Below the pieces are notes generated by a model. The model was not told the DNA's origin. It did not search any database and was given only the letters and a program-made list of their open reading frames with translations. Shown here piece after piece: positions 1,858 to 30,555 of a stretch of DNA of 64,000 nucleotides (within the stretch, counting starts at the first letter, position 1; every line of letters starts with the position of its first letter). Position numbers and translations under genes: made by a program. Location of the stretch: positions 64,001 to 128,000 of the forward strand of contig OZ243956.1 of assembly GCA_965214405.1 (NCBI GenBank), read 5' to 3'. Origin of the DNA: Trueperaceae bacterium. GTDB taxonomy: Bacteria; Deinococcota; Deinococci; Deinococcales; Trueperaceae.

Positions 1858-2587
1858 GGGGAGGTGAGTGGGCGTGAGGGGCTGTCTGAGAGGACGTCAA
1901 TTTTCCCCCCTCGAGCCGCAACTCCCGCGCCCCCGACAGGGTGGTCTGGTGCGCGGTCAAAAGCACCGCACCGCCCGCCGCCGCGCGCGCGCCCAGCGCG
2001 TCTTGCAGCACTCCTTGCGCCTCCACGTCGAGCGCGTTAAAGGGCTCGTCGAGCATCAGGAGCGGGGTCTCGAGGCCCAGCGCGAGCGCCAGGGCGAGTT
2101 TTTGGCGCATCCCCCTCGAGTGGCGGCTCGGGCTCTCGCCCAAAAAGCGGGTGAGGGAGAAGGCGTCCAGCCACCCCAGCGCCCGCGCCTCCGCCCCTGG
2201 TTGCGCGTAAACGCGCGCGGTGAAGACCGCGTGCTCGCGGAGCGTGAGGTCTTCGTAAAGCGCCGCCACGTCGGGCGCGTAGACAAAGCTCGCCTTGGCC
2301 GCTAAGCTCTGCGGCCTGTGCCCGCGAATCAAGATGTCGCCGTTATGGGGCAAAAGGCCCGCGACCGCGCGCAACAGCGTGCTTTTGCCCGCGCCGTTGG
2401 CCCCCGCGAGCCAGGCTAAGTCGCCCACCTGGAGGGTGAAACTCACCGACTCGAGGATGACCGCGCCGCTCAGGCGGACGCTCACGTCTTCTAAAGTGAG
2501 AACGGGCGTGTCGGGCGTGGGTGCGTTAGGGGCGGGACCGTCTTGCGCAGGACCATCTTGCGTAGGACCATCTAGGGGCTGACTCAC
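1838..2587 (-). CDS. ABC transporter ATP-binding protein
   Basis: Walker A GANGAGKST, signature HSRGMRQK, Walker B LLMLDEP; start set at GTG 2587 overlapping the upstream stop. Confidence 0.85.
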   Translation of the reverse strand: MSQPLDGPTQDGPAQDGPAPNAPTPDTPVLTLEDVSVRLSGAVILESVSFTLQVGDLAWLAGANGAGKSTLLRAVAGLLPHNGDILIRGHRPQSLAAKASFVYAPDVAALYEDLTLREHAVFTARVYAQPGAEARALGWLDAFSLTRFLGESPSRHSRGMRQKLALALALGLETPLLMLDEPFNALDVEAQGVLQDALGARAAAGGAVLLTAHQTTLSGARELRLEGGKLTSSQTAPHAHSPPREADVR

Positions 2588-2901
2588 CCGAGCACCCAGT
2601 CGGTCAGCAAGTAAAAAGCGAGCGAGGCGGCCACGCGGATGATGTGTTCGCGCGGCGCGGCGGTGCCGAACACCACGCGCGCGTTGACGAACGAGGCGAG
2701 CGCGGCGAGGGCGAGACCCGCCGCCAAAAAGCCGCGGGTAAAGGGGATGGCGGACACGAACGCCGCCGCGGCGATCATCAGCACCGCCGCCGCGAGCAAA
2801 AAGAGCCCCGCGACCCACGCTTTGCGGCGCACCACCGCCCACGCCCCAAAGGCGTTGACGAGCGCGTAACCGGTGGTCACAAAGGCCAGCAGAATGAACA
2901 T
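2584..2901 (-). CDS. Small integral membrane protein
   Basis: 105 aa with about four hydrophobic helices; operonic position. Confidence 0.65.
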   Translation of the reverse strand: MFILLAFVTTGYALVNAFGAWAVVRRKAWVAGLFLLAAAVLMIAAAAFVSAIPFTRGFLAAGLALAALASFVNARVVFGTAAPREHIIRVAASLAFYLLTDWVLG

Positions 2902-2912
2902 AGGCGCACGCC

Positions 2913-3758
2913 TTACAGCGCCCCCGTCAACGCGGTGAGGTCGTCGGGGCTCAGCAGGTCGTGAAGATAAACGACCGTAAGGGGTTTATGGACCGCGCGC
3001 GCCACCTGGGTGGCGAGCCACGCGTCGGTTCCCGTCTGGTCGGCGACCATGACGAGTTCGTCCACGCTCCCCTTGCGGCTTAGGTAACGCGCCGCGCCCA
3101 GCACCTCGCGGTCGGTCGGGAGAAGGCGCGCGTCCAGCCGCGCCCCCTCGTCGCGGAGCATGGCGGGCTCGAGCCTTCCCTGCGACACGAGGTGTTGCCC
3201 CGGCGCGCCGAGTTTGCCCACCACCACGTCAGTCAAAAGCCAGGGTTGCGCCAAGACGCCCACGACCCGTTCGTTCGACAAGCCCCGCCAGCGCGGCTCC
3301 GGGTAGCGCGGCGGCTTCGCCAGGCTCCGGTTTCTCTCCCACACGCGCCGCACCAACGCGGGGTCGCGCGAGAGCGCGTGGAGCGTGTTGACGGCCAGCG
3401 TTTGGGGGGGGTTCTCGAGCCCCGCGGGCACCCCCACCAGCGGCGGCAGACCGCCCAGCGTGGCGGCCAACGCCTCGGGAAAAGAGGCCACCCACGGGTC
3501 TTGCCCCCCGCCCCGCGCGCTCTCAAAGGCGGGGTTTAAGTCGGGCACGATTAACATGTCTACGTCTAATGAAAGCGCCTGCGCCGCGGCCATCTTAAAG
3601 GCCACGCCGGGAACTTTTGCCAAGCGCGCGTCGGTGAGCGCGCGCTCCACGAGCGGCGGCTCGGGAAAAAGCGCGTCCGCCCCCACACCCGTAACGAGCT
3701 TGTGCCAAAGGGGACCGTAACGCTCCCAAAGTAAAGACGTGAGAAAGCCAACACGCAT
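2913..3758 (-). CDS. Hypothetical protein
   Basis: 281-aa ORF at the head of the operon; TAGACT hexamer shortly upstream of ATG. Confidence 0.65.
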   Translation of the reverse strand: MRVGFLTSLLWERYGPLWHKLVTGVGADALFPEPPLVERALTDARLAKVPGVAFKMAAAQALSLDVDMLIVPDLNPAFESARGGGQDPWVASFPEALAATLGGLPPLVGVPAGLENPPQTLAVNTLHALSRDPALVRRVWERNRSLAKPPRYPEPRWRGLSNERVVGVLAQPWLLTDVVVGKLGAPGQHLVSQGRLEPAMLRDEGARLDARLLPTDREVLGAARYLSRKGSVDELVMVADQTGTDAWLATQVARAVHKPLTVVYLHDLLSPDDLTALTGAL

Positions 3759-3955
3759 AGCGGCCTAGTCTAGCACAAGACGTTTGGGGGGTCTGGCGCG
3801 CGGACGTGACCGCAAACAGGCTTTTTCATGAGTACCCTAGAGGAAGCTGTAGAACGCGCTTTTGCTTCCCTAAAGACGAACGTGATGCGTACCTGGTCTA
3901 AAGGCTTCTCAGGCCTCGGTACTCGCTTATGCGAACAGACCCGGTCGAATCTGCG

Positions 3956-5443
3956 TTAGCCCAATCCCGTTTCAAAAGGTCGTCCCCCAAACCTTGCTAA
4001 GTTGTCCGCATGATGAGCGCGCCCTGTGGCTCTCAAACGGGCCAGATAAGCTTGCCAGTTCTGGCTCTTTTCGTTGGCGTGCAGAGGGCCACCCTCGGCG
4101 ATTACGCCCCAAAATGGGTCACCCCTCAACGCTTTGGGCATCTGCGCGGCGAGCCAGGCGTCCAGCTTCTGCAAGCCCTGATTTAAGACATCATTGTGGG
4201 TAGAAGCAAGATTGGTGGTTTCGTGCGAGTCGTCTCTAAGGTTAAAAAGCATGTACGCAGGAAAGTCTTTTAGACCCGTGTGGTAGGTGCGAATCATCAG
4301 CCAATCGTCCCAGCGCACCGAACGCTGACAGCTCCACGCGCCTTGGCTCAGCACCAGGTAATCGCGCCCTTCGTCTTGCGGTGAGGATAACGTGGAGGCG
4401 AAGGACGAGCCGTCCCAACTCTCGGGTTGTTCGCCGCCCATAAGTTCGGCGAGGGTTGCCGTAAGGTCGATATGGTAGTAAAGGCCGTTCTTGACCGCGC
4501 CAGCTTGCTCATCCGTAACGCCGGGCCAGCGCACAAGGAGAGGGAGACGATTGGTTTTGTCGTCCGCCGTTTGGTGGTCGCCCCAGACGTTGAGTTCACC
4601 GTGATTTTCGCCGTGGTCGGCGCAAAGCACAATGGCGGTGTCGTCGTAAACGCCCATATCTTTCAAGTCTTGGATGAGTTTGCCGACGTAAAAGTCCGCG
4701 TAGTGAATGCCCGTGTCGTAGCCGTCTATATGCGCTTTCACGTCTTCAAGCGTTTTGATGTGCCCCACCCCCATGCGCCAGACAGGGGGCAAAACGTCGT
4801 TATAGCCCGGCACGTCGTGCGCCCCGTGGGGGCCGAAGGAGGCGTTTTGGGCGTCGAGCAAGCTTTGCGTGTACCAGTCCTCGATGGGTTCGTCTTCAAA
4901 AGGATTCCCGTAACTTTCAGGGTGGTCGTAGGGGGTATGCGGGTCCCAGAAGTTGATATGCAAAAACCAGTCGTCTTTTTTACCGTTTCGCTCGAGCCAA
5001 CCCTTGGCCGGTGGATACATCTCGTCCGCGTTTTCGTAGCCGCCTTTGCCCGTGTCGTAGGTTTCGGAAAAGCCGTACCAGGCTTGATAGGCCGTGTGCC
5101 GATTCGGAAAAGGGCTGATGCTCGCGGTGTGGTAGCCCGCGCGCCTTAACACGCTGGCGAGCGCGTCTTCGGCAAAGCGGGTGCGAAAGCCGCGGCTCGC
5201 GCCTTGCAAGGGCAGGTCGGCGTAAGCCCCGCCGTGGTTCACCACGCCCGTGTTGACGCCGAAACGCCCGCCAAAAAAAGCCGTCCGGCTGGGTAAACAG
5301 GGTGTATCGGTGGCGTAAAGGTTGGTAAAGCGAACGCCTTCGGCGGCGAGCGCGTCGATATTGGGAGAAGTTTGGCGGTGGTAGCCGTAGCAAGAAAGGT
5401 GGTCGGGGCGTAAGGAGTCGATGTCGATGTACAAAATTCGCAT
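3956..5443 (-). CDS. Sulfatase (Cys-type, formylglycine-dependent family)
   Basis: N-terminal IDIDSLRPD, CLPSR motif, DPH and ADHG metal motifs. Confidence 0.9.
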   Translation of the reverse strand: MRILYIDIDSLRPDHLSCYGYHRQTSPNIDALAAEGVRFTNLYATDTPCLPSRTAFFGGRFGVNTGVVNHGGAYADLPLQGASRGFRTRFAEDALASVLRRAGYHTASISPFPNRHTAYQAWYGFSETYDTGKGGYENADEMYPPAKGWLERNGKKDDWFLHINFWDPHTPYDHPESYGNPFEDEPIEDWYTQSLLDAQNASFGPHGAHDVPGYNDVLPPVWRMGVGHIKTLEDVKAHIDGYDTGIHYADFYVGKLIQDLKDMGVYDDTAIVLCADHGENHGELNVWGDHQTADDKTNRLPLLVRWPGVTDEQAGAVKNGLYYHIDLTATLAELMGGEQPESWDGSSFASTLSSPQDEGRDYLVLSQGAWSCQRSVRWDDWLMIRTYHTGLKDFPAYMLFNLRDDSHETTNLASTHNDVLNQGLQKLDAWLAAQMPKALRGDPFWGVIAEGGPLHANEKSQNWQAYLARLRATGRAHHADNLARFGGRPFETGLG

Positions 5444-23866: not shown

Positions 23867-26800
23867 GTGAGCCGTACTCTTGGCAAGGCGCAACGGCTCA
23901 CCGAACTGCTCGAGCTTCTCAAGCTCAAAGCCTGGACGAGCCGCGAACTCGCGGAACGCTTCGGGGTGCCCATCCGCACGGTTCAGCGCGACCTAGACAC
24001 GTTACGCGAGAGCGGGCATGGGGTCGCAACCTCAGAGGATTTCCGCCACCGCCTCACGCCGACGGGTTCGTCGCTTAACGCCGTCGAAGGACTCGCAGTT
24101 CACGCGGCGGTAAGGCTCTTGTACCACCACTCACCTACCCAGAACCGGTATTACCGCTCGGCTTTGGAGAAGCTGGCGGCGCTGCTGCCCGAACCTGCCA
24201 GGGGAATCGCGGCGGCGAGTGCGCAAGACCTGAAAGTGCGCCCCGGTGACGACCGGACTTTGGAGTTGGTCGCGCGGGCCTGGTTCGAGGGCAAAGTTCT
24301 GCGGTTCAAGTACCTCGCCCCGGATAGTTTTGAACCTGCCTGGCGCGAGTTGGAAACATATCTGCTCGAGGTCAGCCGCACTAACTTGGCCCTTTACGCC
24401 ATCGGTCAGGAGCGCACGTTCAACCAGGTGCTCACCTTCAAATTGTCCCGTATGAGCGATGTTCGTGTTTCGGACGATGCCTACGCCATCCCTGAAAGCT
24501 TTGCGCCGAGCGAATACTTGAGCGCTGCTTGGGGCGTGATGGGTGGGCAAGGGGACAAGGTGGCTAAAGTGCGCTTGCGCTTTGAGCCCGAAGCCGCCTC
24601 CCGCATCAAAGAGGGCGGCTATCCCAATTTGAGGGTAGAGAGGGAACTAGCGGACGGCTCGCTCGAGGTCGAAATCAAAGCAGGCACCGACAACACGGGC
24701 TTTCCAAAAGAACTCCTCCCCTGGGTACAGAGCTGGGGGCCACGGGTCGATGTTCTTGCGCCCAAGGCGCTGCGCGAACGCTGGCTGAGCGAGGCCGGTG
24801 CCGTCGCGTTGAGGCACCCTCACTTAAAAACGAGGCTCGCGTCACTAGATGACGCACCCAAAGGACAGACTGAACCTATGACGAATCTTTCAGCGAAGGC
24901 GGCGGCCCTGTGGGCCAAGAGTGGTGAAGACGAGCAGGGCTATAGCCTCGTGGGACACTTGTTGGACGTGGCGGCGGTGGCGCACGCCCTGCTCGAGCGC
25001 GAACCCCCGCAGACCCTGCGGCTTTACGCGGAGGATGTGGGGCTCGAGCCCGGCGACGCTAAGAAATGGATAGCGGCACTGGCGGGCTTACACGACATCG
25101 GCAAGGCGACCCCGGCCTTTCAGCGGCAGTGGGAACCGGGACGGCTGGTGGTCGAGGCAGCGGGGCTTACGTTTAGCAAGGGCGACAAGGGCACCGCACA
25201 CGGAAAACTCTCGCAGAAAATCTTGCAAGACGAGCTCAAAATCTACGGTTTAGGTAAGAGGCTCGCCGCTCAAGTTGCCGACGCCGTAGGCGCACATCAC
25301 GGTCTGCGAACCGCGAAGGGCGACTTGTCAGACAACGTCGTTCCGCAACAAGACATGGGCAACAATGCGTGGCAAGAAACCCGGCAAGAGCTGCTAACCG
25401 AGTTTCTAAAGGCCGTAGAAGTCGTTCAAATCTCACCCCCGATCACCGCCGCACTCACGGGCCAGGGCTTTATCCGATTAGCAGGCTTGACCAGCTTTGC
25501 CGATTGGATTGGCTCGACAGTTGACTTTTTTCCTACCGACCGCAAAGTAGAGAATTTGAGAGAGCACTTTCTCGACTCGTTGCTAAGGGCGCGCAAGGCC
25601 CTGAACGCGATAGGCTGGGAGCGCCGCGAGCCTTTAGCGGCGGAACCTCGAGCCTTCAACACCATCTTTCCTTTTGAGCCCAACGGTCTTCAAAAGCAAA
25701 TCGTCAACCTTGTCGAGCAAACGCGTGAACCCTCTCTTCTCATCGTCGAAGCGCCGATGGGGGAAGGAAAAACGGAGGCTGCCTTCTACGCCCACGTCAC
25801 TTTGCAACGGCAGTTGGGGCACCGAGGCTTGTACGTGGCGCTGCCCACGCAGGCAACGGGTAACGCCATGTTTGAGCGCACCAAAAACCTTCTCAGCACC
25901 TTCGAGCGCGACACGCCACCCGACTTGCAGCTTTTACACGGCTCGAGCCTGCTCAACGACGCTTACGCCACCATCCAAATCAAGGATGTAGATGGAGTGG
26001 ACAACACAGAGAGCGAGGTGTGGGCCAGAACCTGGTTCACCAGCAAAAAGCGGGCGCTGCTTTCGGAAAACGGGGTGGGCACGGTTGACCAGGCGCTCCT
26101 CAGCGTTCTAAACATCAAACATCAATTTGTGCGCCTGTGGGGATTGGGTAACCGCACGGTTGTTTTGGATGAAGTCCACGCGTATGAGCTTTACACGAGC
26201 AAGCTCATTGAGCGCCTAGTCTGCTGGCTGCACGCGCTCGGCTCGTCGGTCATCATCATGAGCGCGACGCTGCCCACCGCCAAACGACTAGATTTAGTCA
26301 AAGCCTTTGGCGGCGGCGCGGCCGAGGAGCCCGTCTCTTACCCACGCATCACGCAGGTGCTGGGCGGAGAGACCAAGGAGGTTTCGTTCTCGGTGAGAGA
26401 GCAGAAGCCTATGAGCTTGAAAAGGGTCAGCCTAGATCTCGAGACGGTAGCAAACCTTCTCACAGGCTTGATGACGGACGGCGGTTGCTCGGTGGCTATT
26501 CTAAACACGGTGCAGCGGGCGCAAACTCTTTACAGCCTGTTTGGGGAGGGTGAAGGTCTTGAGGCCGGAAAGCGTTTACCCGACGGCACCGAGGTCTATC
26601 TGTTCCACGCCCGTTATCCGGCGGAGGAGCGGAAAAAGCGGGAGGAGGCGGTGCTGGGGAAGTTCGGCAAGGGCGGAGAGCGCCCAGCCAAGGCCATTCT
26701 CATCGCCACGCAGGTGGTTGAGCAGAGTTTAGACCTTGATTTTGACGTGATGGTGAGCGACTTAGCGCCCGTCGATTTGCTCTTGCAGCGTGCCGGACGG

Positions 26801-27556
26801 ATGCACCGCCACGAGCGCGAACGTCCCGCCGCCCACGCGTCGCCCGTCCTTTACGTGGCAGGGCTGACCGACGCCGAGACGCTACCGGATGTCAGCAGCG
26901 AATACTTCGATTGGGTTTACGAAGCGTTCACGCTTTACATGACGTGGTGGACCTTGGCTGATAAGGAAGTTATTGCGTTACCTGAAGACTTTGAGCCGCT
27001 TATCAAAGCCGTATACGGCGAAACCGATTTTACGGCGCTGCCGGATTTCGCCCGTGAGGTGGTTGAGCAAAGCCGCGCGGACCAGGAAGGAGAAGCCGAC
27101 ACCCACAAGCGAAAAGCTGTCAGCTCAGCTAACGTGATACCTCTGCCAAACATCTACCCGACCACCGACGGCGTCAGTTCGGTTGTCAAGAGCGAGGACG
27201 ACGAAGACCCCAGCCTTCACGAGCACTACCGGCCCGCGACGCGTCTGGGCGATCCCAGCGTCACGGTCATCCCCTTACATAAAAAGGATGACAAGCTTTA
27301 CCTCGAGCCCTCCTACGAAACCGAAATCGTGTTGAACAAGGAACCCTCATGGCAAGCGGCGAGAACCCTCTATCTGCAACACCTCAAGCTGAGCCGTAAA
27401 GGTCTTGTGTTCGAGCTTGTTAAATATCCAGTACCCGCTTGGCAGAAGCAACCGCTGCTGCGTTACTGCTTCCCGCTCACTTTTGAGGAGAGGGTGGCAG
27501 TGGTTGGGAAATTGACCCTTCGCTATGACGATGCGCTAGGGATTGTGTATGGGTAG
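23867..27556 (+). CDS. cas3: HTH-WYL-WCX regulator fused in frame to type I-E Cas3 (HD nuclease + SF2 helicase)
   Basis: aa 1-~320: ELAERFGVPIRTVQRDLDTL HTH, WYL core (LYAIG..TFKLSRM), WCX (VRLRF..WVQSWGPRVDVLAPKALRE). From M338: WAKS, HLLDV, LHDIGK, AHHG, ADWIGS, APMGEGKT, DEVH, SAT, QRAGRMHRH. Confidence 0.92.
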   Translation: MSRTLGKAQRLTELLELLKLKAWTSRELAERFGVPIRTVQRDLDTLRESGHGVATSEDFRHRLTPTGSSLNAVEGLAVHAAVRLLYHHSPTQNRYYRSALEKLAALLPEPARGIAAASAQDLKVRPGDDRTLELVARAWFEGKVLRFKYLAPDSFEPAWRELETYLLEVSRTNLALYAIGQERTFNQVLTFKLSRMSDVRVSDDAYAIPESFAPSEYLSAAWGVMGGQGDKVAKVRLRFEPEAASRIKEGGYPNLRVERELADGSLEVEIKAGTDNTGFPKELLPWVQSWGPRVDVLAPKALRERWLSEAGAVALRHPHLKTRLASLDDAPKGQTEPMTNLSAKAAALWAKSGEDEQGYSLVGHLLDVAAVAHALLEREPPQTLRLYAEDVGLEPGDAKKWIAALAGLHDIGKATPAFQRQWEPGRLVVEAAGLTFSKGDKGTAHGKLSQKILQDELKIYGLGKRLAAQVADAVGAHHGLRTAKGDLSDNVVPQQDMGNNAWQETRQELLTEFLKAVEVVQISPPITAALTGQGFIRLAGLTSFADWIGSTVDFFPTDRKVENLREHFLDSLLRARKALNAIGWERREPLAAEPRAFNTIFPFEPNGLQKQIVNLVEQTREPSLLIVEAPMGEGKTEAAFYAHVTLQRQLGHRGLYVALPTQATGNAMFERTKNLLSTFERDTPPDLQLLHGSSLLNDAYATIQIKDVDGVDNTESEVWARTWFTSKKRALLSENGVGTVDQALLSVLNIKHQFVRLWGLGNRTVVLDEVHAYELYTSKLIERLVCWLHALGSSVIIMSATLPTAKRLDLVKAFGGGAAEEPVSYPRITQVLGGETKEVSFSVREQKPMSLKRVSLDLETVANLLTGLMTDGGCSVAILNTVQRAQTLYSLFGEGEGLEAGKRLPDGTEVYLFHARYPAEERKKREEAVLGKFGKGGERPAKAILIATQVVEQSLDLDFDVMVSDLAPVDLLLQRAGRMHRHERERPAAHASPVLYVAGLTDAETLPDVSSEYFDWVYEAFTLYMTWWTLADKEVIALPEDFEPLIKAVYGETDFTALPDFAREVVEQSRADQEGEADTHKRKAVSSANVIPLPNIYPTTDGVSSVVKSEDDEDPSLHEHYRPATRLGDPSVTVIPLHKKDDKLYLEPSYETEIVLNKEPSWQAARTLYLQHLKLSRKGLVFELVKYPVPAWQKQPLLRYCFPLTFEERVAVVGKLTLRYDDALGIVYG
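24839..24871 (+). promoter_or_regulatory. Putative WYL-regulator site and internal promoter for cas3, inside the fusion linker
   Basis: Perfect palindrome GCGTCA-CTAGA-TGACGC, N10, CAGACT, then N6 and the in-frame ATG at 24878; near-identical copy upstream of cas8e. Confidence 0.6.
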
Positions 27557-27606
27557 CTTTACCCAGAAGCCTTGTTATGGTTGCTGTGCAAGCGCGGAAG
27601 TTAGCC

Positions 27607-27635
27607 TTGACTAACCTCCCTATTTCGACTACTAT
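27607..27635 (+). promoter_or_regulatory. Sigma70 promoter of the TA operon
   Basis: TTGACT-N17-TACTAT; SD GAGGA before GTG 27651. Confidence 0.65.
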
Positions 27636-27650
27636 GCTATCGAGGACGTA

Positions 27651-28010
27651 GTGAGCTCTACGCCGTACATCGTTTACGAGTACGAGGACGAAAATGGTTA
27701 CTCCGAGTTTCGGGAGTGGCGCAAGGCGCTTAGACGCTCCAATCCTAGAGCTTCTGCGAAAGTCGATTGGCTCATCGCGCTGCTCGAGGACAAAGGTACA
27801 ACACTGTCGTTTCCCTACGTCAGTCATATAGACGGGCCGATTTATGAACTGCGCGGTAAAACCGGACGTAACACCGTACGCATTTATTACTGGCAACAGG
27901 ACAAAGAGGTATTCATCGCCGCCGCGGGCGAGGTGAAGCAGCAGAACCAAGCTGACCGCAAGCTTATTAGGAAAGCTTTGGCAGCTTACGAGGAATATAA
28001 CAAGGAGTAA
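27651..28010 (+). CDS. RelE/HigB-like (Gp49-type) toxin
   Basis: GPIYELR...NTVRIYY motifs; toxin-first order before an XRE gene. Confidence 0.8.
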   Translation: MSSTPYIVYEYEDENGYSEFREWRKALRRSNPRASAKVDWLIALLEDKGTTLSFPYVSHIDGPIYELRGKTGRNTVRIYYWQQDKEVFIAAAGEVKQQNQADRKLIRKALAAYEEYNKE

Positions 28011-28014
28011 CGCC

Positions 28015-28410
28015 ATGCCAAAACGTCCCTTGAAACGAGCGAGCGACCTAAGCCAAGAGTTTTTGCAAGACCCCGGTTACGCTGCTCTATACCGTGAGGT
28101 CGCTAACGAAGAGATTGGAGCGGCGCTGCGCACAGTGCGCGAGGCTAAGGGGTTAAGCCAGCGTGAGGTTGCCGAGCGCATGGGCGTGACGCGTCCACGT
28201 GTGTCGCAGATTGAAAGTGTCGAGGGTACGGCGTTGGCGCTCGAGGTGCTCAGCCGCTACGCCCGCGCGGTAGGGTGCCGCCTCGACATCACTTTGAAAG
28301 ACGCCGAGACCAACCATGAGGTTGCTGCGCTGTTTGTACCAACGCTCGAGGCTACCGCGCCAAAACCGCCCGGCGCGGAGCCTTATGAAAAAGCAGAGGG
28401 GGTAGCCTGA
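28015..28410 (+). CDS. XRE-family HTH antitoxin (HigA-like)
   Basis: LRTVREAKGLSQREVAERMGVTRPRVSQIES HTH; 4 nt after the toxin stop. Confidence 0.85.
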   Translation: MPKRPLKRASDLSQEFLQDPGYAALYREVANEEIGAALRTVREAKGLSQREVAERMGVTRPRVSQIESVEGTALALEVLSRYARAVGCRLDITLKDAETNHEVAALFVPTLEATAPKPPGAEPYEKAEGVA

Positions 28411-28465
28411 AAGATAGTTCCGCACCACGTAGGCACAACGGTTATGGGTAGAATGAGTTTGAAAC

Positions 28466-28555
28466 ATTTTCCCTACACGCGTGGGGATGAACCTTAGTAA
28501 TTCCACCTGTGGACGTAATAGTGAATATCCTCCCCACACCAGTGGGGCTGCGGTT
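28466..28555 (+). ncRNA. CRISPR mini-array / crRNA-like regulatory RNA (two degenerate repeats + 32-nt spacer)
   Basis: psiR1 ATTTTCCCTACACGCGTGGGGATGAACCT (28466-28494), spacer TAGTAATTCCACCTGTGGACGTAATAGTGAAT (28495-28526), psiR2 ATCCTCCCCACACCAGTGGGGCTGCGGTT (28527-28555); same 29+32 period and hairpin as the main array. Confidence 0.88.
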
Positions 28556-28562
28556 GGTGGGT

Positions 28563-28623
28563 AAGTAGTAATTCCACCTGTGGATGTAAAGCCTTGACTC
28601 CGATACTGTCCCGTGTGTATAGT
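28563..28623 (+). promoter_or_regulatory. AAG PAM + partial protospacer overlapping a sigma70 promoter
   Basis: AAG 28563-28565; TAGTAATTCCACCTGTGGATGTAA (28566-28589) matches 23/24 of the spacer 5' part; TTGACT 28594-28599, N18, TATAGT 28618-28623. Confidence 0.82.
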
Positions 28624-28776
28624 GAAAAAGCGTGGCTGGGGCCTACCGCGAAATAGTCACCCCACCACGCCTCAAGGGACATGCCCTCTGAATCCGATTT
28701 TACCTTAGCTTTGGCACAAATTCAAAGGGCGTCCACTTTAACGTAGGGAGGTTTCCACCTCTCGGACGGGAGTAAC

Positions 28777-28962
28777 GTGTTAGACCTCGAGGACACCACC
28801 TACCAAGCGTTTAGGGACAGCCTGTATCAGGTTGACGAGCGAGACCGCGCCGTGCTGTGGGAGTTCTGGCCCCACTTTCAATCGGCTTTGAACTCTCGAC
28901 ATGGAGAGTGGCAGAAGCTGACGTTAACGGGCTCGCTCGATGACGACGATGTAGACCGTTAA
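28777..28962 (+). CDS. 61-aa acidic small protein, candidate CRISPR-repressed toxin
   Basis: GGGAG SD-like sequence before GTG; lies between the targeted promoter and a terminator; no family recognised. Confidence 0.5.
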   Translation: MLDLEDTTYQAFRDSLYQVDERDRAVLWEFWPHFQSALNSRHGEWQKLTLTGSLDDDDVDR

Positions 28963-28967
28963 CCGTG

Positions 28968-29001
28968 GTGAGGCGCATCCCGCGCCTCACTTCTTTATTT
29001 T
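28968..29001 (+). terminator. Rho-independent terminator
   Basis: GTGAGGCGC-ATCCC-GCGCCTCAC followed by TTCTTTATTTT. Confidence 0.85.
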
Positions 29002-29005
29002 GGCG

Positions 29006-29038
29006 ACGTCACTACATGACGCACCCCCCTCTTACACT
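29006..29038 (+). promoter_or_regulatory. Putative WYL-dependent promoter of the Cascade operon
   Basis: ACGTCA-CTACA-TGACGC, N10, TACACT; no canonical -35; SD AAAGGAGG before the cas8e ATG. Confidence 0.65.
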
Positions 29039-29058
29039 GCTTTTGAAAGGAGGCCGAG

Positions 29059-30555
29059 ATGTTTAACCTCATCCATGAACCTTGGCTGCGGGTCGAAAAC
29101 CCAGACGGCTCGCTAGGCCAGGACTCGCTAAAGGGGGTTTTATTAAACGCCCACCGCTACGCGCGGCTGGCCCACCCCTCCCCCGCCGTGCTCCCGGCGC
29201 TGCACCGCTTTCTACTGGCGGTGCTGTACCGGGTACTGGACGAACCACGCAGTACCGATGAAGGGGTTGATTTGTTCAAACAGGGTCGGTTTCCGGCGGA
29301 GCGCGTCGGTGCTTATCTCGAGCACTGGCAAGACCGCTTCGACCTGTTCCACCCTGAAAGGCCCTTTTACCAGGTGCCGGACTCGGAAGATAAGGTGTCA
29401 GGGGTCGCCCGGCTCGCAGCCGAACTCGCCAGCGGCACGAACAAACTCCTCTTCGACCACACCGCGGAGGCCGACCCGCCGGAGTTGACGCACGCCGAAA
29501 TCGCGCAACTGCTCGTGACCCGGCAGATGACCGCCATCCCCGAAGGCGCGGGCTACAGCCCCAGCCCGGCGGGCGGCGCGGCGTTCGTGCTGCCGCAGGG
29601 TCGCAACCTGTTCGAGACGCTGGTGCTCAACCTCGTTCCTTATTCTGAGGAGGAGAACGAGGACGACGCGCCCATTTGGGAAGGGGCTACGCCGAAGAGC
29701 GCGGCGGTAAAAGCCGCCAAGCCGCGCGGCTCGAGAGGGCTTACCGAACGTTACACCTGGCTAACGCGCATCGTTAAGTTGCAAGAACCCGAGGGTGACG
29801 CGCCTGTGTCGGCGCTGCATTATGCGGCAGGCATCAAGTTCGATGGCGGCGACAGCCCCGACCCCATGTTGGCTTACCGCAAAGATGAAAAGCGCGGGCT
29901 CCTCCCGGTATCTTTCAACAAGTACAAGGCGTTCTGGCGGGACTTTCAGGCCCTAATACCCAATCCCGACAGCGGAAGCTACTTAGCGCCCCAGACGGTA
30001 AAACACGCTCGCAACATATATGAAGAATTAGAGCGCACCGACCCCCTCACCTTACTGGTTTCCGGCCTGAGCAATGACAAGGCCAAGGTCGTGCTGTGGC
30101 GTACCGAACAGTTCAACGTGCCGCAGGTCCTCCTTCAAAATCCGGGGGCTTACGCCGAGTTGACGCGGCTGCTCGAGTACGCCGACAACGGCGGGCGCAC
30201 CCTCTACGGCGCGACGCAGCGCTTGGCGGAAAAGTTGCTGAGCATTGGCGAACGTAAACCCGACCCCGCCGACGTTCGCAACCTGGCCGCGAGTTTTCCC
30301 GCCAGTATGCACTACTGGAGCAGGCTCGAGACCCGCTTTCCCGAACTGCTGGAGCGCTTTGAGACTCAGACCTTTGATGAGCGGTTCAGTTGGTGGTTAG
30401 GGCAAATCACCCTTGTAACGCGCGAAGCCTGGGAGCTTGCCTTAAAGAGCGCCGGGGAAAACGAGCGCGCCTGGCGGGCCGGGGCCGAGGCGAGCAAGGT
30501 CATCAACACCCACCTCAAACGCCTGCGCGAACAGACAGCCGAGCCAGCCCCATAG
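29059..30555 (+). CDS. cas8e: Type I-E Cascade large subunit Cas8e (CasA/Cse1)
   Basis: FNLIHEPWL, LHRFLLAVL, DRFDLFHPERPFYQ, GRNLFETLVLN, DPM, AFWRDF. Confidence 0.93.
   Translation: MFNLIHEPWLRVENPDGSLGQDSLKGVLLNAHRYARLAHPSPAVLPALHRFLLAVLYRVLDEPRSTDEGVDLFKQGRFPAERVGAYLEHWQDRFDLFHPERPFYQVPDSEDKVSGVARLAAELASGTNKLLFDHTAEADPPELTHAEIAQLLVTRQMTAIPEGAGYSPSPAGGAAFVLPQGRNLFETLVLNLVPYSEEENEDDAPIWEGATPKSAAVKAAKPRGSRGLTERYTWLTRIVKLQEPEGDAPVSALHYAAGIKFDGGDSPDPMLAYRKDEKRGLLPVSFNKYKAFWRDFQALIPNPDSGSYLAPQTVKHARNIYEELERTDPLTLLVSGLSNDKAKVVLWRTEQFNVPQVLLQNPGAYAELTRLLEYADNGGRTLYGATQRLAEKLLSIGERKPDPADVRNLAASFPASMHYWSRLETRFPELLERFETQTFDERFSWWLGQITLVTREAWELALKSAGENERAWRAGAEASKVINTHLKRLREQTAEPAP

Follow-up and report, generated by a model that had tools for sequence, protein, structure and literature searches.

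A mini-CRISPR with a partial match at a small-gene promoter upstream of cas8e in a Trueperaceae type I-E locus: a putative CreP-like payload

Regulatory mini-CRISPRs and the present locus

Guide-on-promoter repression, the type I-E autoregulator CreR, the CreP protein payload (KilAC, type I-F) and the 'cargo' genes of mini-arrays are already in print, and the regulatory mini-CRISPRs of type I-E systems have so far been treated as standalone autoregulators of Cas expression (CreR). The locus considered here lies in a stretch of 64,000 nucleotides (nt) from a Trueperaceae bacterium (assembly GCA_965214405.1, contig OZ243956.1, positions 64,001 to 128,000), called the window below and numbered from its first letter. 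Upstream of cas8e in its type I-E locus, a decayed mini-CRISPR most likely directs Cascade to the promoter of a transcription unit holding a 61-codon open reading frame (ORF61), and Cascade would repress that promoter; the guide-on-promoter logic of this cassette is well supported by sequence comparison. Across the Deinococcota, nearly every type I-E mini-CRISPR comes with such a small protein gene, governed by the promoter that the guide controls, and the gene moves with its guide. The proposal as a whole, a guide-repressed cassette with ORF61 as a putatively harmful, CreP-like payload, is given a probability of about 0.4.

CrePA, described from Acinetobacter type I-F systems (Shu et al., bioRxiv 10.1101/2024.01.05.574328), resembles the cassette of the window in having a mini-CRISPR in the cas3-cas8 gap, a partial promoter match flanked by a protospacer-adjacent motif (PAM), a small protein gene before the first effector gene and homologues confined to the gap. 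As reported there, CrePA belongs to type I-F and the Moraxellaceae and encodes a KilAC toxin, whereas the window holds a type I-E system of the Deinococcota and a 61-residue protein with no KilAC or Pfam match, a putative toxin by analogy; moreover, ORF61 is so near to cas8e that the transcript is probably common to both. With CreR of the Salmonella enterica type I-E system (Liu et al., bioRxiv 10.1101/2023.03.10.532045) the window has in common the AAG PAM, the handle in pseudo-repeat 1, the hairpin in pseudo-repeat 2, the match confined to the PAM-proximal part and a target upstream of casA/cas8e. CreR is defined as 'standalone', and its Salmonella target lies about 140 bp before casA with no gene between, whereas in the window the distance is 465 nt and includes a protein gene and a strong terminator. 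A promoter that directly drives the effector operon with no payload gene, as in CreR in the strict sense, is thus not what is found, ORF61 and the terminator intervening, although the unit may work like CreR through read-through.

The CreTA systems of Haloarcula (type I-B) and Pseudomonas aeruginosa (type I-F, with a proline-codon toxin; bioRxiv 10.64898/2026.06.02.729485) follow the same guide-on-promoter logic, and the leader of the window's unit has a Shine-Dalgarno (SD) sequence, a short ORF and a hairpin. The CreT toxins described there are minimal RNAs with tandem rare or proline codons, whereas the element under selection in the window is a 61-residue protein and the mini-ORF lacks such codons. 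The mini-array 'cargo' of Shmakov et al. (bioRxiv 10.1101/2023.03.03.530964; PMC10120712) likewise comprises genes between a mini-array and the effector genes, with a targeted promoter and variable presence; the clades presented in the main account are of type I-D with toxin-antitoxin (TA) genes and regulators, and that account does not mention a small-protein family of Deinococcota type I-E loci. A literature search found neither the ORF61 family nor CreA or CreR work on Thermus, Deinococcus, Meiothermus or Truepera, and the supplementary tables of the surveys may list such loci. Judged by sequence, the ORF61 family is new and unrelated to KilAC.

The guide and its target promoter

In what follows, G numbers denote Deinococcota genomes (G000, that of the window; G032, a Trueperaceae genome of another genus) and L numbers loci upstream of cas8e (L009 in G032, L019 in G018, L014 and L059 in G031, L096 in G257, L100 in G158). 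The elements of the cassette are the following.

28449..28454, forward strand: TAGAAT, likely -10 of the mini-CRISPR's own promoter, as read from the sequence; surroundings kept in G032
28466-28555, forward strand: two-repeat mini-CRISPR, two degenerate repeats around one spacer-like sequence (comparison with the array repeat)
28466..28494, forward strand: pseudo-repeat 1 (comparison with the array repeat by eye)
28495..28526, forward strand: pseudo-spacer, 32 nt (direct repeat with the target)
28527..28555, forward strand: pseudo-repeat 2 (comparison with the array repeat)
28563-28565 and 28566-28597, forward strand: AAG PAM and 32-nt partial protospacer (sequence, direct repeat)
28594..28623, forward strand: promoter TTGACT-18-TATAGT of the repressed unit (-35 28594-28599, -10 28618-28623; 10/12 matches)
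28630..28670, forward strand: 5' stem-loop at the predicted transcript start (folding)
28681..28746, forward strand: 21-codon upstream ORF (ORF list)
28746..28763, forward strand: small hairpin over an SD-like GGGAGG, just 5' of the real SD of ORF61 (folding)
28777..28962, forward strand: ORF61, gene for a 61-residue protein, GTG start after GGGAG
28967..29001, forward strand: intrinsic terminator or attenuator (stem 28967-28991, T tract to 29001; folding)
29007..29038, forward strand: conserved spacer elements, an inverted repeat CGTCA-N5-TGACG (29007-29021) and TACACT (29033-29038) (sequence, comparison with G032)
29059..30555, forward strand: cas8e, first Cascade gene (Pfam)

Pseudo-repeat 1 retains the repeat hairpin, with one wobble pair, and 7/8 bases of the 5' handle ATGAACCG, while pseudo-repeat 2 has a perfect 6-bp repeat stem (CCCCAC/GTGGGG) and has lost the handle. 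The pseudo-spacer is identical to the target at 23 of 24 positions (28495-28518 against 28566-28589; positions 1-18 and 20-24), and at none of the eight PAM-distal positions 25-32. The protospacer overlaps the -35 of the unit's promoter and is the best PAM-flanked, seed-matched site for the pseudo-spacer in the whole 4.5-Mb genome. Degenerate repeats, an asymmetry of handle and hairpin and a seed-proximal, PAM-flanked promoter match are all features of CreR and CreA guides. A scan of 28000-29400 found two promoter-like sites, against 0.5 expected from shuffled sequences; it gave no score to TAGAAT at 28449..28454.

Comparison with G032 showed that the flanks are kept and the guide and target replaced. 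From cas3 to pseudo-repeat 1 the two genomes are about 86-87% identical, the coding part of ORF61 agrees at 150/183 aligned positions (82%), and the stretch from the ORF61 stop to the cas8e start is identical at 93 of 96 positions (97%). The segment from the pseudo-spacer to the start of ORF61 (28497-28782, compared with L009) could not be aligned by BLASTN. In G032 another pseudo-spacer matches another AAG-flanked site, placed equally far from a TTGACT box, and a 5' hairpin of different sequence stands at the same place, with a short ORF between two hairpins. Because the G032 pair differs in sequence and is still matched, guide and target must have changed together. An earlier note on this DNA, made from the sequence alone, had described a repressed unit here; the guide it presupposed is borne out by the partial protospacer over the -35 and by a relation that survives sequence change in relatives. 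That guide and target cannot be aligned between loci whose flanks are 82-97% identical is perhaps a sign of diversifying change, for which an escape from phage mimics of regulatory CRISPR RNAs (crRNAs) is a guess.

In the mechanism proposed, the mini-CRISPR would yield a crRNA-like guide that is loaded into the type I-E Cascade of the locus itself and pairs with the PAM-proximal 24 nt of the AAG-flanked site over the -35. Since the PAM-distal 8 nt are unmatched, Cascade would act there as a repressor and Cas3 would not cut. The repressed transcript would start near 28630, carry a stabilising 5' hairpin and have the ORF61 protein as its functional product. A drop in occupancy by Cascade and guide, whether through loss of Cascade, titration by crRNAs or an anti-CRISPR block, would allow ORF61 to be made, and transcripts passing the terminator would also raise Cascade expression. 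ORF61 would then be a payload in the sense of CreP, a protein that would bind a partner and, once released because Cascade fails, slow the cell or bring it to arrest, with addiction or an anti-anti-CRISPR effect as the outcome.

ORF61 and its protein

By its pattern of substitutions and codon usage, ORF61 is a genuine protein-coding gene. Its homologue at the same place in G032 has 82% amino-acid identity, with 17 synonymous and 11 non-synonymous codon changes (differences at the three codon positions, 12/2/20) and a ratio of non-synonymous to synonymous substitution rates (dN/dS) of 0.10; in codon usage ORF61 is close to the cas genes. Opposite the GTG start, the alignment has CTG in G032, where no in-frame ATG, GTG or TTG occurs before codon 26.

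The protein is acidic (isoelectric point 4.3, 14 acidic and 6 basic residues) and ends in a conserved Gly-Ser-Leu-Asp plus an acidic tail. An AlphaFold2 model has three helices (residues 4-16, 21-29 and 31-51) and a loose acidic tail, with a mean confidence (pLDDT) of 77.6 that rises to 84.1 with a joint alignment of 16 sequences. Pfam (E-values up to 0.01) and PHROGs gave no match, nor a KilAC domain; Foldseek searches of the model against PDB and BFVD gave none at E up to 0.001, and the wide VIA structure search reached a best Z of 5.8, with generic helical hairpins. In the searches made, no known anti-CRISPR or DNA-mimic inhibitor matched ORF61 in sequence or fold. A PADLOC match to DndF (E 0.003, 46 residues) was taken as due to chance. 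A complex prediction for ORF61 with Cas8e scored 0.00 in a run without controls and is used neither for nor against an interaction.

ORF61 had been called an orphan in the earlier note, which proved wrong. Besides the G032 protein, two further homologues were found in a collection of 5.8 billion proteins, and among 1.84 billion representative proteins a four-sequence profile recovered the family's own cluster, plus four weak multi-stretch matches in long proteins. A scan of JGI metagenomes found no relative of ORF61, and the ESM Atlas, queried with the homologue P0003, gave no usable match. Small genes that probably form a wider family stand behind guide-targeted promoters, as follows.

Small genes behind targeted promoters in the Deinococcota

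Homologues of Cas8e were found in 99 of 364 Deinococcota genomes. Upstream DNA was read at 95 cas8e sites (35 loci and 60 more), and the 93 regions of at least 400 nt entered the survey, which looked for a sequence resembling the handle and, after it, a pseudo-spacer whose partner site has a PAM and a seed match. A mini-CRISPR with a matched promoter site was identified in 24/93 regions, 16 by the strict scan, 7 more by a relaxed scan and 1 by eye (L081). The strict-scan matches in L032 and L093 were set aside as coding sequence; of the relaxed scan, L042 and one match in L096 were set aside, and L014, where a mini-CRISPR is present and the target uncertain, was left out of the 24. The relaxed scan gave 20/93 regions, against 1 in reversed sequences and 2-7 in shifted registers. 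In every sequence read, the target, on one strand or the other, either adjoins or overlaps the -35 box of a promoter close to consensus.

Between target and cas8e, 20/24 of these loci hold an intact ORF of 46-89 codons that has a Shine-Dalgarno sequence. In two it is broken (a frameshift in G018, a cut to 26 codons in G039) and in two it is lacking, namely G223 and G270, the latter with the classical CreR layout of a target about 80 nt before cas8e. The positional rule of a small ORF behind the targeted promoter is firm. It also upholds in part the earlier suggestion of a dedicated payload, less like CreR: the small ORF is there, intact or broken, in 22 of the 24 loci, and a CreR-type reading probably applies as well.

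The small ORFs fall into an ORF61 type (G000, G032 and the broken copy of G018), an LYG type, a Thermus-like group, a Deinococcus group and singletons. The Deinococcus subfamily is near neutral, unlike the acidic ORF61. By profile, the LYG type occurs in 5/364 genomes, always adjoining cas8e. ORF61, the LYG type and the protein of G361 have a common C-terminal register, F-x3-L-x2-R-x2-[ED]-x7-G-S-L-D-[DE]. A joint profile of 16 sequences matched 16/364 genomes at one place each, 15 of them just upstream of cas8e; the sixteenth match, in G188 (E 4e-5), fell in a GC-rich stretch whose examined part has no cas genes, and was taken as spurious. Homologues near cas genes, which the earlier note had proposed to look for, are therefore the rule for this profile, and, as with CreP, a protein gene stands behind a guide-targeted promoter with homologues confined to the cas3-cas8 gap (15/16). 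When the LYG profile was used, the top non-self matches were almost all small ORFs at this position, and such ORFs also head the lists of other profiles. From the register, the position and weak cross-profile matches, it is probable that the subfamilies form one superfamily. The dN/dS was 0.12-0.17 in three pairs from other subfamilies and 0.54 in one near-identical pair, which has only 6 differences; a further three pairs yielded no ratio because of saturation.

Some observations on annotation belong here. All other database names of family members read 'hypothetical protein'. A UniRef label of HEPN on one 58-residue Deinococcus member was dropped, the protein being too short and Pfam giving nothing for ORF61. 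A HEPN domain is about twice that size. The LYG-type 'long forms' of 130-135 residues (P0016, P0017, P0019, P0020 and P0021) were rejected as gene-call artefacts that start inside the mini-CRISPR; these public gene calls read through the promoter and mask the true 58-residue genes. At about -293 to -150 in two loci of the Deinococcus family, L096 (G257) and L100 (G158), ORFs of 46-47 residues, helical and with an acidic end, stand behind a promoter targeted by the mini-CRISPR; the profiles used did not pick them up.

The cassette as a mobile unit

In most other loci cas3 overlaps cas8e or ends no more than about 70 nt from it. On a tree of Cas8e from 34 loci, the distribution of the 9 carriers takes 8 changes, at least 7 of them forced by starred branches, which is no better than the mean of 8.1 for shuffled labels. 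Loci whose Cas8e proteins are near-identical differ as to the cassette (L025 against L026 and L027, about 0.004 changes per site), and so do L036 and L038 (about 0.09 changes per site). This scatter, together with near-identical Cas8e with and without the cassette, indicates that mini-CRISPR, promoter and small gene move as a unit, and Cascade as such does not need it. Among the upstream regions searched, the small-ORF profiles found members only where a mini-CRISPR was present. Pairs of almost identical cas operons, one holding the cassette and one lacking it, offer a natural comparison.

Leader and terminator of the unit

All elements of the unit in the earlier note were recovered where it had placed them, from the promoter and the 5' hairpin through the 21-codon ORF, the SD-like hairpin and ORF61 to the terminator. 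The 5' hairpin (28630-28670) folds at -20.5 kcal/mol (z -2.97, 2/200 shuffles equally good), and the hairpin at 28746-28763, at -9.5 kcal/mol (z -1.5, 17/200 shuffles), is weak alone. For the 21-codon ORF the codon adaptation index (CAI) is 0.37 and the third-position GC content (GC3) 0.45, against 0.60 and 0.69 for ORF61. Its peptide is not conserved, an unrelated 20-codon ORF occupying that place in G032, and it is probably non-coding or regulatory.

These leader elements bear on whether a toxin encoded here could be an RNA, as the earlier note had allowed. In that case the 5' part (SD, 21-codon mini-ORF and hairpin) would arrest translation on derepression, as in CreT, and ORF61 would be incidental. 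The leader does hold an SD-like AAGGGA, an ATG and a short ORF with a hairpin behind it, G032 has its short ORF between two hairpins, and the layout is like that of published CreT RNAs (bioRxiv 10.64898/2026.06.02.729485, as outlined there). The mini-ORF has no tandem rare or proline codons after its start, however; neither its peptide nor its nucleotide sequence is conserved even in the nearest relative, G032, whose leader cannot be aligned; the other cassette leaders read are about 50-70 nt, too short for a mini-ORF; and the element conserved across cassettes is the downstream protein gene. An RNA toxin is thus very improbable, and this option of the earlier note is disfavoured. Two side observations concern the loops of these leaders. 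The two ORF61-type leaders have AATAGTCA in common in their hairpin loops, and the LYG-type leaders (L017, L025, L029, L030 and L090), about 40-80 nt past the -10, differ in their stems and have the loop motif GCCGCCAAG in common.

At the other end of the unit, the terminator joins a 10-bp stem, 7 of whose pairs are GC, to a T-rich tail (8 T in 10; -19.9 kcal/mol, z -5.79, 0/200 shuffles equally good), the GC-rich stem-loop and U tract expected of Rho-independent termination, and it is identical in G032. The ORF61 stop codon lies 5 nt before its stem. Such a spacing, and the hairpins of some kind found 3' of the small ORF in several relatives, would suit a leader or attenuator in which the act of translating ORF61 matters (through coupling, or anti-termination by ribosome position) and its product does not. 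Purifying selection on the amino acids (dN/dS 0.09-0.17 in four informative pairs from three subfamilies), the conserved C-terminal motif and the confident predicted fold would be unexpected if only translation counted, and because of them this explanation is improbable.

Beyond the terminator, the inverted repeat and, about 11 nt on, a TAnAnT hexamer before cas8e are kept in G032, and also in G018 (L019, about -73 to -37) with a different flanking spacer sequence. Together, 29007..29038 are possibly an operator and a weak -10 for cas8e.

A harmful payload or a benign partner of Cascade

The preferred reading, of ORF61 as a CreP-like payload, makes a harmful effect of the protein plausible and the protein a putative toxin. 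In its favour are the decayed small ORFs beside intact guide-target pairs (the frameshift in G018, the truncation in G039, the CTG in G032), the strict linkage of the small gene to the guide and its cassette-like scatter. In addition, a frameshifted frame in the slot of ORF61 in G031 reads by eye like a HigB/RelE-type toxin; Pfam gave nothing on this frame, and the gene 5' of the mini-CRISPR there is a Pfam-confirmed antidote-type gene. Precedents are CreP, a protein toxin reported behind the CreA target in the cas3-csy1 gap (Shu et al., bioRxiv 10.1101/2024.01.05.574328), and the enrichment of TA genes described between mini-arrays and cas genes (bioRxiv 10.1101/2023.03.03.530964).

Several observations weigh against it. 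ORF61 resembled no known toxin in the Pfam, PHROGs, PADLOC, Foldseek and VIA searches, purifying selection keeps the family across several families of the phylum, whereas CreTA elements are called highly diverse in the discussion of Shu et al. (bioRxiv 10.1101/2024.01.05.574328), and only 2/22 small-ORF copies are broken. As to the unity of the family, cross-profile searches among 1092 upstream reading frames gave weak E-values of 0.007-3, hhalign gave the ORF61 and LYG subfamilies a probability of 6%, and some of the small ORFs (those of G074, G257 and G158, for example) may be analogues rather than relatives. As to transcription, the small gene always runs in the direction of cas8e, at a distance of 19-153 nt, only 3 of 9 ORF-to-cas8e spacers folded have a convincing stem and T tract (G000, G032 and G329), and no consensus promoter was found between the terminator end at 29001 and the cas8e start at 29059. 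The small gene thus looks like the first cistron of the Cascade operon, a position that suits a helper or regulator as well as a toxin.

Because few spacers of relatives hold a terminator and no consensus promoter follows that of the window, the Cascade operon is probably also transcribed from the targeted promoter, by presumed read-through in the window and directly in most relatives. The insulation from cas8e claimed in the earlier note therefore holds for the window as far as its strong, conserved terminator goes and fails as a general property. These same facts point to autoregulation of the CreR type, with the targeted promoter as the Cascade promoter, ORF61 as a benign accessory (a modulator of Cas3, of the WYL regulator or of Cascade, or an anti-anti-CRISPR factor) and the terminator as an attenuator fixing how much ORF61 is made relative to Cascade. 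In each of the 22 loci where it occurs, the small gene has the same orientation and immediately precedes cas8e. Moreover, cassette-free loci have cas3 abutting or overlapping cas8e, whereas in cassette loci a T run often follows pseudo-repeat 2, so that a new Cascade promoter would be needed there. Acidity and a conserved C-terminal motif, found together in many members, are what a binding protein would show, and CreR is established in type I-E (bioRxiv 10.1101/2023.03.10.532045, in the account given there). Set against this, almost identical Cascade operons manage without the cassette, the small gene was never seen without a guide, CreR of S. enterica is described as working without such a gene, and the terminator of the window is strong and 100% conserved in G032. 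Autoregulation with a benign ORF61 is doubtful on balance and yet deserves real weight.

The payload reading can be extended to the whole phylum. The ORF61 family would then comprise CRISPR-supervised protein effectors, a type I-E counterpart of CreP unrelated to it in sequence, released when Cascade is lost or blocked, with guide-target pairs that diversify quickly, possibly in escape from the Cracr RNAs (bioRxiv 10.1101/2024.10.29.618823) by which phages mimic regulatory crRNAs, and with the conserved C-terminal Gly-Ser-Leu-Asp and acidic tail as a docking motif for a host target; in this full form the proposal is unlikely. If the protein is harmful, type I-E would have its first protein 'CRISPR guardian', and CreP a second family unrelated to the first; if the protein is benign, it would be a small partner of Cascade, Cas3 or the WYL circuit. 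Either way, a defined 61-residue protein and a 430-bp cassette are directly testable.

Locus setting

The type I-E locus of the window is complete, in the order cas3, HigB-like/HigA-like pair, mini-CRISPR region, Cascade genes and array (Pfam and repeat scan). Apart from the elements listed above, it comprises:

23867..27556, forward strand: cas3 with an N-terminal fusion to an HTH-WYL-WCX regulator (Pfam HTH_11, WYL, WCX, Cas3_HD, DEAD, Cas3-like_C_2, Cas3_C)
27651-28010, forward strand: HigB-like gene (Gp49; Pfam PF05973, E 3.8e-11)
28015-28410, forward strand: HigA-like gene (HTH_3; Pfam PF01381, E 2.4e-12)
3' of cas8e: cse2, cas7, cas5, cas6e, cas1 and cas2 (Pfam)
35006 to about 39655: long CRISPR array (tandem repeats)

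The HigB-like/HigA-like pair (27651..28410) thus sits between cas3 and the mini-CRISPR. A search of Rfam over 27500-30000, with E up to 1, gave no match. The HTH-WYL-WCX regulator is a separate gene just 5' of cas3 in G074, G023 and G322 (loci among L056-L059), and in G031 WYL and WCX domains are fused to cas3; from these arrangements, the WYL sensor seems to belong to the clade of type I-E loci that includes the window. In G032 (L009, reverse strand, about 2000-4000), many BLASTN repeat matches upstream of cas3 reveal a second CRISPR array of the same repeat family.

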